A stretch of 35,093 bases of DNA from a virus (taxonomy: Duplodnaviria; Heunggongvirae; Uroviricota; Caudoviricetes): the IMG/VR virus record IMGVR_UViG_2529293015_000001, one strand, 5' to 3'. The first letter of the stretch is position 1, and the number at the start of each line of letters is the position of its first letter. This document shows, piece by piece, positions 1-35,093 of this stretch. Both the position numbers and the translations under genes were made by a program. The notes beneath the pieces were generated by a model. That model had not been told where the DNA came from and made no database searches. It worked only from the letters and a program-made list of their open reading frames with translations.

Positions 1-75
1 CCACTTATCCAATAGTATTAAGACCTGAAAGACAGTAACGGTAAGGCATTAACCGGACTGGCTGATAACATTGAA

Positions 76-2175: not shown

Positions 2176-2201
2176 GGGAGGGCTTAGCCCTCCCTCTTTT
2201 T
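2176..2201. terminator. Bidirectional intrinsic terminator between convergent genes
   Basis: Perfect 8-bp GC-rich stem GGGAGGGC/GCCCTCCC (2176-2183, 2187-2194), loop TTA, then TCTTTTT; A/T run on the other side as well. Confidence 0.7.
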
Positions 2202-3243
2202 ACAGGTTAGCGTTTGGGTTTTGTTGTTGGGGAGCTGTTTTTATAGGCGCTCCCAGGTTTTTAGTAAACCACTCAACGACTCTGTTTATAATAATTGGCT
2301 GATACCATGTCTTATCGCCATGCTCGGCCCCTTCTACCAGAACGTACTCAGCGTTATCGCTGTTCTTCTTCAACATCCTGAATAGTTTGGCGCTTTGCTC
2401 CGGTGAAACCAGAGTGTCTTTGCTACCATGCATAATAAGAAATGGAGGTTTTACTCCTTTCATATGTCCGATTGGACTGGCGTTTAGCGCTTTTTCTTTT
2501 GACGCTGTGATGGGGGCTCCCGCAAAATTTCTGAATGCAGGGCCATTGATCATTAAGGCTTCGGTTACGGCAGGAGAGCGATGAACCTCCTGAACTGATT
2601 CAGGGAACCCCTCGCCAATATTCAACAAGTCAGAAATTCCATAAAGTGTGGCAACTGCCTGAACATCTGAGGATTGCTGAAGAAAGTCACCTTTATCAAA
2701 GGTTTTGTCACCATTTGTAGTTCCCATCATCTGGGCAAGCCATCCACCGGCAGAGTCACCCAGAACTCCGATTCTTTGAGGATCAATCCCATAATCGCTG
2801 GCATGCTCTCTCAGGTAACGTATTGCAGCTTTTCCATCCTCAACTGGTGCTGGAAATGTATCAGGAATTGTTCGGTATTCTACAGCGGCCACAACAAAAC
2901 CAGCTTCTGCCAGAGCCATTCTCATTTCAATAAATTTGTCATGTTCAGAAGACATGAATCCGCCGCCGGGATAATAAATAATGGCTGGTTTTAAATCATT
3001 TGTTCGCGGGACAAGAACTGACATGTGAAGCTGTCTGACAGAACGAGTTCCTTTTATCTGGGAGTAAACAACATCACCAATGAGATCGACCTGGTTTCTG
3101 GTCGGTGAAACACTAATGATATCTGCGCCCGGGGTGTAACCAGGAAGATTAGTCTGGACAGGTGTTGCACAACTCCCGACCGACATGGCCATTGACATAC
3201 CATACAATAGTGTTGCAGATGATAATATCTTGTTAATTTTCAT
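2200..3243 (-). CDS. Lipoprotein alpha/beta-hydrolase, hormone-sensitive-lipase-type esterase/lipase
   Basis: 347 aa; N-terminal signal with lipobox-like VGSC; HGG-like oxyanion motif YYPGGGF; nucleophile elbow GDSAG; later Asp and His consistent with a catalytic triad. Confidence 0.65.
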   Translation of the reverse strand: MKINKILSSATLLYGMSMAMSVGSCATPVQTNLPGYTPGADIISVSPTRNQVDLIGDVVYSQIKGTRSVRQLHMSVLVPRTNDLKPAIIYYPGGGFMSSEHDKFIEMRMALAEAGFVVAAVEYRTIPDTFPAPVEDGKAAIRYLREHASDYGIDPQRIGVLGDSAGGWLAQMMGTTNGDKTFDKGDFLQQSSDVQAVATLYGISDLLNIGEGFPESVQEVHRSPAVTEALMINGPAFRNFAGAPITASKEKALNASPIGHMKGVKPPFLIMHGSKDTLVSPEQSAKLFRMLKKNSDNAEYVLVEGAEHGDKTWYQPIIINRVVEWFTKNLGAPIKTAPQQQNPNANL

Positions 3244-5878: not shown

Positions 5879-6036
5879 TATTATTGCAACGACATTTATA
5901 ATACCGTTGCTTTATTGTAACGGTGTTCCCTGCTGTAGCCTTATTTTTTTGTGGGTTTTTTCTTGCTGAAGTTTGGCAAAGTGAACTTTGTATGCATATA
6001 CTTCATCCAAATATTCAGTAATATCAGGTGGATGAT

Positions 6037-6771
6037 ATGGCAATTACATGTTCAGTTATATTGGTTCTGGAGTCGTTTGATGTGCCTTTGGGAAAGAATA
6101 GAGTGTTTCTGGAAAAAGGCTCATCTGTACTTGTTGACTATGGAACCAGAGATTTTTTTCTGACATATCCGGAAAGAGTTATAGTAGCGGATTTTGGTGG
6201 TGAATTTATTAGCCGCTATTTGAAAGCTAATAATCTAAGGGGTTTTTCTGATTGTAGGGAATATCCATCTTATATAAAAACAAATTTTGCTGATTTCAGT
6301 CTAATTAAGGGGTTAATTAGTTGGGCTAATCACTGCACTGAATACATTGAAGTTTTAGATGAGTCTATTGCATTTACATGCCTATCCGCATTTGCGTCGG
6401 AAAAACAATTTACAATATTCCTGTTTGGATGTCTGAAAAGTGTAGGGGCTAAAGTTAAAGCGATTATTCATACGGATATGTCTGCACCCTGGCGTCTTAA
6501 AGATATATCTTCAAGATTATATCTCAGCGAAAGTTTGCTAAAGAGGAAATTGAGAGAAGAAGGTCTGTCATTCAGTAAAATTATACTTGATGAGAGGATG
6601 CGGATGGCTGAATATTTACTCAGCACTCGTTGCTATTCTATTCGCAAAGTAGCCGAGGTCTGTGGTTATGTAAGTGTCTCGTACTTTGTTCATGTATTTA
6701 GATGTTATTTTGGTATTTCTCCAAACCAGTATTCACAGAAGAACTCAGAAAGTGAGATTATCACTCACTAG
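6037..6771 (+). CDS. AraC-family transcriptional regulator of the AppY/YdeO/GadX-like subfamily; moron
   Basis: C-terminal twin helix-turn-helix typical of AraC/XylS (…IRKVAEVCGYVSVSYFVHVFRCYFGISPNQY); N-terminus M-x3-CSV parallels the appY-like ORF at 34362; AT-rich island; ATG 6037 with AGGTG upstream (GTG 6028 alternative). Confidence 0.75.
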   Translation: MAITCSVILVLESFDVPLGKNRVFLEKGSSVLVDYGTRDFFLTYPERVIVADFGGEFISRYLKANNLRGFSDCREYPSYIKTNFADFSLIKGLISWANHCTEYIEVLDESIAFTCLSAFASEKQFTIFLFGCLKSVGAKVKAIIHTDMSAPWRLKDISSRLYLSESLLKRKLREEGLSFSKIILDERMRMAEYLLSTRCYSIRKVAEVCGYVSVSYFVHVFRCYFGISPNQYSQKNSESEIITH

Positions 6772-10664: not shown

Positions 10665-14345
<3,681 letters not shown>

Positions 14346-32311: not shown

Positions 32312-33352
32312 ATGGCGAGCTTAACAGTAATTCCTGATGACATCAAAACGCTAAAATCCGACGTTAGCAAATTAAAAAACGATCAAGGAAGCTACGCAAC
32401 AAAATCATATGTAGACAATAAAACAACATGGAATAGTTATTGCAATGTAATCTATGATCAAAAGACATTGCCGACCACTGGAACTATATTTAGCGGTAAG
32501 ATTCACTTGTCAAATAAGACAGGAGAAACTGAAAACGCTTATAGTGAGATGTACACCAGAAAAAATATTGACGGTACAAAAGATACAATGACAAGGATTG
32601 TCACACACAATGGAATAAAAGGTATCTTTTGGGATTTTAGCGATCTTTACGGCGGAACATTAATTTTTCCAGGCAGTGATGGTTACCTTAAGATGGGGAA
32701 CTGTCTCATGTCGTATGGTGTGCGGGGAAGTAACGCGCTTATTAAATTTGATTACACCGACACATTACAGATCAAATATGCCAATCATGGGTCAACCATG
32801 ACATTAAACACACAGGGGACCGCTCATTCTGGCGCTACTACTAGTTTGTGGGGTAACTCTACCCGTCCGGTTGTATATGAAGTTGGTGCTGATGGTGGCG
32901 CGTATATGTTCTATGCGCAGAAAAATACCGATAACACCTATATGTTAAGCGTTAATGGTGCATGTCATGCCACCGCATTTAACCAGCATTCCGACCGGGA
33001 TCTGAAAGACAACATTCAGGTGATCGATAATGCAACCGACCGCATCCGTAAAATGAACGGCTATACATACACGCTTAAAGAAAACGGTATGCCCTATGCT
33101 GGTGTCATTGCACAGGAAGCTCTGGAAGCAATCCCAGAAGTTGTAGGTTCCGCAATGAAATATCAGGACGGTGCGGGCGGATCGGAAGGTGAAGAAGGTG
33201 AACGTTATTACACAGTAGATTATTCTGGTGTTACTGGCTTGCTTGTTCAGGTAGCCAGAGAGTCAGACGACAGAATAACAGCACTGGAAGAAGAAAACGC
33301 AGAATTAAGACAAAGATTATCTGCAATTGAGGCGGCGCTTGCGTCTAAATAA
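32312..33352 (+). CDS. Second tail-fiber-like protein with C-terminal intramolecular chaperone (peptidase S74-like) domain
   Basis: 346 aa; SD GAGGGG 6 nt upstream; C-terminal ~120 aa (…NQHSDRDLKDNIQVIDNATDRIRKMNGYTYTLKE…GVIAQEALEAIPEVV…YTVDYSGVTGLLVQVARE…) match the recalled consensus of self-cleaving fiber/tailspike chaperone domains, then a short coiled-coil tail. Confidence 0.6.
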   Translation: MASLTVIPDDIKTLKSDVSKLKNDQGSYATKSYVDNKTTWNSYCNVIYDQKTLPTTGTIFSGKIHLSNKTGETENAYSEMYTRKNIDGTKDTMTRIVTHNGIKGIFWDFSDLYGGTLIFPGSDGYLKMGNCLMSYGVRGSNALIKFDYTDTLQIKYANHGSTMTLNTQGTAHSGATTSLWGNSTRPVVYEVGADGGAYMFYAQKNTDNTYMLSVNGACHATAFNQHSDRDLKDNIQVIDNATDRIRKMNGYTYTLKENGMPYAGVIAQEALEAIPEVVGSAMKYQDGAGGSEGEEGERYYTVDYSGVTGLLVQVARESDDRITALEEENAELRQRLSAIEAALASK

Positions 33353-33358
33353 TATCAA

Positions 33359-33378
33359 GGGGCCGAGCGCCCCGTTTT
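33359..33378 (+). terminator. Weak intrinsic terminator after the second fiber gene
   Basis: GGGGC-CGAGC-GCCCC followed by GTTTTATT. Confidence 0.4.
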
Positions 33379-33388
33379 ATTGGGTAGG

Positions 33389-33688
33389 ATGAAAATGGAT
33401 ATAACACCTTTCCTTCATGCGCTTTGTGCTGTGGCTGCGCAGGTACTGATTGGCCTTTTTACCGGAAACTGGGCTTACGGGGCGATAGCCGGTTGTACGT
33501 TCTTCATTGCGCGCGAACACACCCAGGCAGAATATCGCTGGATCGAAATGTTCGGGCATGGCAAGCGAATGAATATGCCGTGGTGGGGCGGTTTTGATCC
33601 GCGCGCATGGGATGTGGCAAGCCTGATGGATTTTGCTGTGCCGGTGGTGGCGTGTCTGCTGGTCTGGCTGTTGGTTAATCGTGGGTGA
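33389..33688 (+). CDS. Small hydrophobic inner-membrane protein (two or three predicted TM helices); moron
   Basis: About 99 aa; hydrophobic stretches AVAAQVLIGLF, AIAGCTFFIA, AVPVVACLLVWLLV; higher GC than flanks; ATG 33389 or 33395. Confidence 0.4.
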   Translation: MKMDITPFLHALCAVAAQVLIGLFTGNWAYGAIAGCTFFIAREHTQAEYRWIEMFGHGKRMNMPWWGGFDPRAWDVASLMDFAVPVVACLLVWLLVNRG

Positions 33689-34361
33689 AAAAAGGTGAGC
33701 TGTATATGCAACGGAGGAAGAAAACTCGTTGCTGGAAGCCTTGAAGAAGTATCGGGTGTTGCTGAACCGTGTGGACACTTCCGTAGCACCAGATATCGAG
33801 TGGCTTATTCAACCATAATAAACAGTATGTATATCATAGGTTATTAATTGTGAGTTTTTTCGGTGTGTTATTTGTTTGTTTGATGTTATGCTTTTGCGCC
33901 CCAAAAGGTTGTTTAGATGTATTTTATCAATTGATTTTCAATATCGTTTAATAAAGAAAAATTAAGCAAGCTGGATGTTGGTTTTTTGTTAATTGAATGG
34001 TTCTAATAATGTTTTTTTACTGTTGTTGAATGTGACTTGATAAGAGATGCAAGTAAAAATGATGCTCTTTTTATTTTAAATTCAAACGGTTGATATATAT
34101 AGCAAGAGGTTTCAGGTGCGTTGTAGTGAGTTTATGTTAATAAAAAGCATAGTAAACGTTGAAAAATGTAACTTTGAAATACGTTAGAATAAAAAACAAT
34201 ATACATATAATAATTTAATCTTAAATGAAATTTATTAAAATTTGCAAACTATAATTTTGTGTATAAAAATATAAATGCACATCATCCTGATTATGATTGT
34301 GTATTTAATTGGTTGTTATTTGACTACTATCAACTTGTTTTAATTTTATGATAGGTGCAAG

Positions 34362-34739
34362 ATGGATTATGTTTGCTCCGTAGTTTTCATCTGTCAATCA
34401 TTTGATTTAATTATAAACAGGAGAGTTATCTCGTTCAAAAAAAATTCATTGTTTATTGTAAGCGACAAAATTAGAAGAGAGTTACCAGTATGCCCCTCTA
34501 AACTAAGAATTGTTGATATAGATAAGAAAACATGTTTATCCTTTTTTATCGACGTGAATAATGAGTTGCCTGGCAAATTTACTCTTGATAAGAATGGCTA
34601 TATTGCTGAAGAGGAACCTCCATTATCGCTTGTTTTTTCTCTGTTTGAAGGGATTAAAATAGCAGACTCACACTCCCTTTGGTTAAAAGAAAGACTATGT
34701 ACTGATGAATCCCCTAATGATTTTGGTAAAAATCATTAA
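34362..34739 (+). pseudogene. appY: appY-like AraC-family regulator truncated after about codon 113 by IS10; the last 12 codons are read from the IS10 end
   Basis: [30 protein letters not shown]... recalled as the AppY N-terminus (DLP12); homology ends where the IS10 outside end begins (34702); the AraC helix-turn-helix part is missing. Confidence 0.6.
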
Positions 34740-34747
34740 GTTAAGGT

Positions 34748-34816
34748 GGATACACATCTTGTCATATGATCAAATGGTTTCGCGAAAAATCAATAATCAG
34801 ACAACAAGATGTGCGA
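34748..34816 (-). ncRNA. IS10 RNA-OUT antisense RNA (position estimated by offset from the IS10 end)
   Basis: Known IS10 organisation: ~69-nt RNA-OUT from pOUT, complementary to the 5' end of the transposase mRNA; coordinates are the IS10 positions about 47-115 mapped onto the window, not an independent prediction. Confidence 0.4.
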
Positions 34817-35093
34817 ACTCGATATTTTACACGACTCTCTTTACCAATTCTGCCCCGAATTACACTTAAAACGACTCAACAGCTTAACGTTGGCTTGCCA
34901 CGCATTACTTGACTGTAAAACTCTCACTCTTACCGAACTTGGCCGTAACCTGCCAACCAAAGCGAGAACAAAACATAACATCAAACGAATCGACCGGTTG
35001 TTAGGTAATCGTCACCTCCACAAAGAGCGACTCGCTGTATACCGTTGGCATGCTAGCTTTATCTGTTCGGGCAATACGATGCCCATTGTACTT
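34809..35093 (+). CDS. IS10 transposase, N-terminal 95 codons (partial)
   Basis: MCELDILHDSLYQFCPELHLKRLNSLTLACHALLDCKTLTLTELGRNLPTKARTKHNIKRIDRLLGNRHLHKERLAVYRWHASF... matches recalled IS10 transposase; no stop inside the window. Confidence 0.85.
   Translation, partial: MCELDILHDSLYQFCPELHLKRLNSLTLACHALLDCKTLTLTELGRNLPTKARTKHNIKRIDRLLGNRHLHKERLAVYRWHASFICSGNTMPIVL

Follow-up and report, generated by a model that had tools for sequence, protein, structure and literature searches.

The right-hand end of a DLP12-type lambdoid prophage of Escherichia coli raises a simple question: a gene with a recognizable AppY-type beginning breaks off shortly before the available sequence ends. What interrupts this gene, where is the rest of it, and does any of its function remain? 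The window analysed here is the whole of the 35,093-nt contig CADHNQ010000008.1 (assembly GCA_902849155.1), which ends inside IS10 and in which the prophage retains a full late region, with appY at its right end. A sequence-only reading had proposed that an appY-like regulator gene was inactivated there by IS10. The answer reached below is that appY of E. coli B093 almost certainly carries a single 1.3-kb IS10 (an IS4-family element, labelled 'ISVsa5 family' by PGAP) flanked by a 9-bp duplication, and that the resulting allele is null as far as transcription factor function is concerned.

The interrupted gene starts at 34362 on the + strand, and its 5' fragment (34362..34701) comprises codons 1–113 and the first base of codon 114. 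Residues 1–113, encoded by 34362–34700, align without a single mismatch (113 of 113) to intact AppY from E. coli 7CC and from K-12, and the DNA of 34362–34701 differs from K-12 appY at 2 of 340 nt, both changes being synonymous. For this comparison, the 5' part in the window was joined to the scaffold sequence lying past IS10 (see below) and set against 7CC and K-12, the latter being rebuilt from ET12567. This identity, together with the name carried by the 90%-identity protein cluster of the interrupted ORF ('DNA-binding transcriptional activator AppY'), indicates at the sequence level that the gene is appY itself and not merely appY-like. The earlier description is thereby refined, while its observation that the AppY sequence breaks off at 34702 stands. 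As had also been noted, the reading frame then runs 12 codons into IS10 before reaching a TAA, which gives a fusion ORF of 125 aa (34362..34739, + strand) made of AppY residues 1–113 and 12 IS10-encoded residues. No Pfam or NCBIfam match was obtained for this ORF; neither database has a model for the AppY N-terminal region, and its identity is thus shown by alignment. A homologue search with the fusion protein returned six short fragments only and missed full-length AppY, owing to a word-index limit. Exact protein look-up found the 125-aa product in just two contigs, CADHNQ010000008.1 and JH590646.1, and the deposited record of this exact protein is EHN91323.1, 'hypothetical protein ESNG_00445 [Escherichia coli B093]'. 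Upstream of the gene, a region of only 28% G+C (33790..34361, + strand) extends from the tail-fibre end to the appY start codon; the same AT-rich region precedes the intact appY of 7CC.

The 392 nt from 34702 to the contig end (34702..35093, + strand) were tested as IS10 and correspond to nt 1–392 of this element, i.e., to its outside-end part, with 391 of 392 positions identical to a complete 1329-bp copy from strain 203740. IS10 matches at 99.7% are found in many genomes, where they are annotated as 'IS4-like element ISVsa5 family transposase'. The outside-end terminal inverted repeat, CTGATGAATCCCCTAATGATTTT, can be read directly from the sequence at 34702..34724 (+ strand) and pairs, as an imperfect inverted repeat, with the inside end, CTGAGAGATCCCCTCATAATTTC, as found in both the B093 scaffold and the ET12567 genome discussed below. 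A GATC (Dam) site lies in the pIN region at IS10 nt 67–70 (34768..34771), and its regulatory role there is established IS10 biology. The RNA-OUT antisense RNA gene (34747..34816, - strand), with pOUT directed toward the outside end and a 5' end that overlaps the transposase start codon, is matched over its full length (1–70, minus strand 34816..34747) by Rfam RF00240, at 98.8 bits for a gathering score of 41; a consensus promoter scan missed both pIN and pOUT, and this covariance model was relied on instead. The transposase ATG at 34809 corresponds to IS10 nt 108, and codons 1–95 of 402 are present before the contig end cuts the gene (34809..35093, + strand). Translated, they give the same residues as the start of the 402-aa transposase encoded by the complete copy, and the NCBIfam IS4-family transposase model matches this product (E = 7.6e-19). 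A single position, 34997 (IS10 nt 296), reads G in the window and A in the copies of strain 203740 and ET12567, a synonymous change in Arg codon 63. Among the best matches listed, no complete E. coli genome shares this G, all of them staying at 99.7%, so it seems, from these comparisons, to be private to B093 or a sequencing error. Elsewhere in the window, there is no further piece of IS10 and no 3' part of appY. Taken together, the pattern of matches to appY and IS10 cannot be due to chance.

The other side of the element was found by extending the sequence rightward on a sister scaffold, JH590646.1 (352 kb; GCA_000242015.1, E. coli B093), which shares the final 10,732 nt of the window without a single difference; coordinates in this scaffold are given below for the locus L003. 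To the right of the point where the window ends, the scaffold continues with 146 N, IS10 nt 989–1329 up to the inside end, the 9-bp sequence GACTATGTA, the rest of appY, and then ompT, envY, ybcH, and nfrA, as in K-12. More precisely, the inside end ...GGGGATCTCTCAG finishes at L003 11219 and is directly followed at 11220–11228 by a second copy of the 9 bp that stand immediately left of IS10 in the window (34693..34701) and that span appY codons 111–114. Past this second copy, the scaffold reads TATCCTTACTTGCC..., that is appY from codon 114 on. The other IS10 end, the 9-bp target duplication, and the remainder of appY, which had been proposed as things to look for, are therefore all present, and appY does not continue in frame across the junction, since its remainder lies beyond the IS10 inside end and the duplication. 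Window and scaffold together cover IS10 nt 1–392 and 989–1329 only, the middle 596 nt (393–988) being Ns in the only scaffold that spans the element. The two assemblies, GCA_902849155.1 and GCA_000242015.1, break at the identical base inside IS10 (window 35093; gap at L003 10733–10878), and the former looks like the latter split at its gaps, or like a re-assembly of the same reads; they are thus probably not independent data. The window stops inside IS10 because a short-read assembly broke at this repeat.

The gap leaves some room for a longer insertion bounded by IS10, whether Tn10 with its tet genes or two direct IS10 copies flanking a cargo. The scaffold gap lies precisely between IS10 nt 392 and nt 989, and a contig break at this place implies that IS10 is repeated in the B093 genome or hard to assemble. 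In a canonical Tn10, however, outside ends are found at both junctions, while here the outside end faces the left flank and the inside end the right flank, in one consistent orientation, and the sequenced pieces (nt 1–392 and 989–1329) fit one element. The spacing of 146 N would contradict a cargo of several kb only if it is a distance estimate and not a placeholder. No tet genes were seen in the window or in the scaffold flank. As for the full Tn10 that had been raised as a possibility, the ends and their orientation indicate, with nt 393–988 read as Ns, that the element at this site is a lone IS10 and not a composite Tn10, and a larger element is highly improbable. Closer still to negligible is the probability that the appY/IS10 junction is an assembly chimera formed at a contig end, despite its position within a repeat, 392 nt from the contig end, and despite the common break point, and probably common reads, of the two assemblies that carry it. 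Indeed, the break falls exactly at IS10 nt 1, and on the other side a precise inside end is followed by a perfect 9-bp direct repeat and then by appY in register, which is the signature of transposition and not of a mis-join. Furthermore, in ET12567, whose genome is finished, IS10 has demonstrably inserted into these very 9 bp.

What a lone IS10 at this position would do to AppY can be deduced from the domain organization of the protein. In intact AppY, the helix-turn-helix (HTH) region occupies residues 158–234 (Pfam HTH_18), and the structure of the GadX DNA-binding domain aligns to residues 135–236; the HTH thus lies entirely beyond residue 113. In an alignment with Rns, AppY residue 97 corresponds to Rns residue 121, which places the cut near Rns residue 137, ahead of the DNA-binding domain and, in the Rns structure, within the N-terminal domain. 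The fusion product is accordingly predicted to be devoid of the whole DNA-binding domain and of the end of the N-terminal domain, and, given a cut within the latter, the 125-aa fragment probably does not fold. The C-terminal double HTH (HTH_18/HTH_AraC) is absent from the fusion frame, which represents a disrupted allele and not a functional member of the family. Of the two fates that had been considered for the DNA-binding half, missing or displaced, only displacement holds, as this half is found beyond IS10 in the sister scaffold. IS10 would thus have transposed into appY with duplication of GACTATGTA, leaving AppY 1–113 followed by 12 unrelated residues as the remaining product, and displacing the HTH domain about 1.3 kb downstream, where it would have neither promoter nor start codon; such an arrangement is expected to make appY null as a transcription factor.

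AppY is an AraC/XylS-type regulator encoded by DLP12 and induced by anaerobiosis, starvation, and stationary phase, and its direct targets include gadE, nhaR, and gadY (PMC10057817). It raises acid resistance and biofilm formation and lowers motility; it also affects RpoS degradation, by a route that is still unresolved, and lowers FlhDC (PMC10057817). Given this known role, B093 would no longer induce hya, cbd/app, gadE, nhaR, and gadY through AppY. A separate difference is found in the 3' part of the B093 gene, where L003 11395–11401 is a run of seven A, versus eight in K-12 and 7CC, and would cause a frameshift after residue 168 even without IS10. Either a sequencing error in the homopolymer or a second inactivating lesion may account for this shorter run; in the latter case, appY could have been a pseudogene before IS10 arrived, and its inactivation would then not be due to IS10.

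The window junction itself occurs in no complete genome of the collection searched. A second appY::IS10 allele was nonetheless found in ET12567, a K-12 dam strain (NZ_CP045457.1), where the element occupies exactly these 9 bp of appY and has likewise duplicated them (L001 4393–5740); this junction, too, is unique in the genome collection. The opposite orientation of the element, the different IS10 variant, and the different host all indicate that, on sequence grounds, the ET12567 insertion is an independent event. The shared 9 bp fit the published relaxed IS10 consensus, NRCNNNGYN, fully, and the classical NGCTNAGCN at 3 of 6 positions only. There are only 4 such relaxed-consensus sites in the AT-rich appY gene. 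For about 16 consensus sites per kb and up to 4301 chromosomal IS10 places in the genome collection, about 0.05 coincidences are expected at any given site. The coincidence was considered as a strong hot-spot signal and discounted as such: with about 0.05 expected and only 4 sites in appY, it is suggestive only.

A reading in which the insertion is more than a plain loss of function was weighed against this background. The 125-aa fragment might be active without DNA binding, for instance in RpoS stability, or loss of appY might be recurrently selected, for instance because it relieves repression of motility. In favour of such a possibility, the promoter region and start codon of appY are intact, as are 113 codons of the native gene; AppY acts on RpoS degradation by an unresolved route and lowers FlhDC (PMC10057817); and ET12567 has a second IS10, independently acquired, at these 9 bp. 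Against it stand the cut, which in the Rns alignment falls near residue 137, before the HTH domain, with a fragment that is probably unfolded, and the presence of each allele in one strain only. In addition, ET12567 harbours IS10 at no fewer than 40 places (at least 40), hence many sites have been sampled in this strain, and since the site is one of 4 consensus sites in appY, its reuse is expected from target preference alone. A reading other than plain loss is accordingly very unlikely, and there is an equally small probability that GACTATGTA is a natural IS10 hot spot in unrelated strains, with appY loss being selected or the 125-aa fragment acting without DNA binding, e.g., on RpoS turnover. 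The version based on selected loss would rest on AppY repressing motility and rewiring acid and stationary-phase responses. With only 4 consensus sites in appY and at least 40 IS10 places in ET12567, the known target preference adequately explains the reuse of this site, and the insertion in B093 is best regarded as a plain loss of appY function.

The remainder of the window provides the setting of this gene. Its late region (5091–33352) includes antiterminator Q, a second AraC-type regulator, lysozyme, Nu1, the terminase gpA, the portal protein, tail proteins K, I, and J, Lom, and tail fibres. The second AraC-family regulator (6028–6771, + strand; HTH_AraC/HTH_18) directly follows the Q antiterminator, at the position of ybcM in DLP12; ybcM is mentioned in the AppY study cited above (PMC10057817). 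At the left end, a 695-aa ORF with five Big_1/invasin-D3 Ig-like repeats (76–2163, + strand) is convergent with an alpha/beta-hydrolase ORF resembling BD-FAE esterases (2200–3243, - strand). The last tail-fibre gene (32312–33352, + strand) encodes a C-terminal Peptidase_S74 (endosialidase chaperone) domain, and 3' of it stands a G+C-rich hairpin with a terminator-like score on both strands. A sub-threshold match to the Rfam IS009 model was recorded at 33686–33784 (+ strand; 59–66 bits for a gathering score of 117, 3' half of the model only); it overlaps a region annotated in 7CC as a remnant of a tail-fibre-assembly gene. At three of the loci compared (L003, L001, and L005), the position of appY between the right end of the prophage and ompT/envY is kept.

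The presence of an IS10 outside end next to a prophage also raises the question of outward transcription, which had been suggested as possible on account of the pIN/pOUT control region. RNA-OUT begins at IS10 nt 115 (34816) and is directed leftward, on the minus strand, to the outside end, and, with RNA-OUT being intact, outward transcription from pOUT would be possible in principle. Such a read-through would cross the appY fragment in antisense and the 28% G+C spacer, and would then meet the hairpin at 33359–33373. All prophage late genes to the left of IS10, tail-fibre genes included, are on the + strand, as is the appY fragment, and the ORF list shows no credible minus-strand gene in this path; no gene is thus placed under pOUT. 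As the outside end faces the appY start, the pOUT/RNA-OUT unit would fire antisense into the appY fragment and would switch on no gene, so that the suggested transcription into the prophage, conceivable in principle, would be antisense throughout and have no obvious target.

The other general statement made about this locus, namely that IS10 is uncommon in wild-type chromosomes and therefore informative about strain history, is not borne out. IS10 nt 1–392 was matched in 1932 of 5426 complete E. coli genomes (36%), with at least 80% coverage in 1246 of them, and the places of IS10 in complete E. coli genomes amount to 4301 on chromosomes and 2518 on plasmids. The isolates that carry it come from people, poultry, pigs, cattle, and water, in addition to laboratory strains. 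Since IS10 is this widespread in natural isolates, its presence says little about ancestry and should not be taken as a mark of a laboratory past. The prophage of the window and the flank of appY are themselves like those of natural isolates and not like K-12, the best match being 7CC, from mink (98.4%). One further rearrangement of appY was noted during these comparisons: the best match initially listed as spanning the junction, in XL10-Gold (NZ_CP081008.1, L002 4111–4979), was rejected as an IS10 junction and has a rearranged appY 5' end instead. In this laboratory strain, appY adjoins ycgY, treA, and dhaM; the first codons of the gene are altered, which puts the end-point of the rearrangement, as read from the sequence, at the very start of appY.

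The appY::IS10 allele of B093 is an ordinary textbook gene knock-out of an already-known kind: it is one instance of a textbook process, in which the gene hit codes for a regulator already known and the genome is in the public databases. The gain is in annotation, as the last gene of the window, deposited as a hypothetical protein, can be named as the disrupted appY of B093. The finding also accounts for the point at which the contig stops; beyond that, it has little significance. It leads, by extension of what is known of AppY, to the prediction that B093 would be without AppY-dependent induction of hydrogenase 1, of cytochrome bd-II, and of part of the glutamate-dependent acid-resistance circuit.

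When set beside known systems, the B093 element most closely recalls IS10-Right of Tn10, with which it agrees at 391 of 392 nt. The two also have in common the outside and inside ends, a GATC at nt 67, a transposase start codon (ATG) at nt 108, RNA-OUT in full, and the duplication of a 9-bp target that fits NRCNNNGYN; the B093 element differs by the G at nt 296, and the middle 596 nt of the B093 copy are Ns. The composite transposon Tn10 likewise contains IS10, but consists of two inverted copies with outside ends at both junctions and tetR/tetA between them, whereas the right junction in B093 is an inside end. With regard to the host locus, appY of the K-12 DLP12 prophage is the same gene, with the same neighbours (a tail-fibre remnant upstream, ompT and envY downstream) and the same N-terminal 113 aa, except that the K-12 gene is whole and that of B093 interrupted. 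The prophages also differ, as K-12 DLP12 is truncated after nohD and has lost the complete lambda-like head and tail module that the B093 prophage keeps. Finally, the appY::IS10 allele of ET12567 occupies the same 9 bp as that of B093, but in the opposite orientation, with the inside end facing the appY start, with an IS10 variant that has 8 mismatches over nt 1–392, and in a K-12 host with a truncated DLP12.
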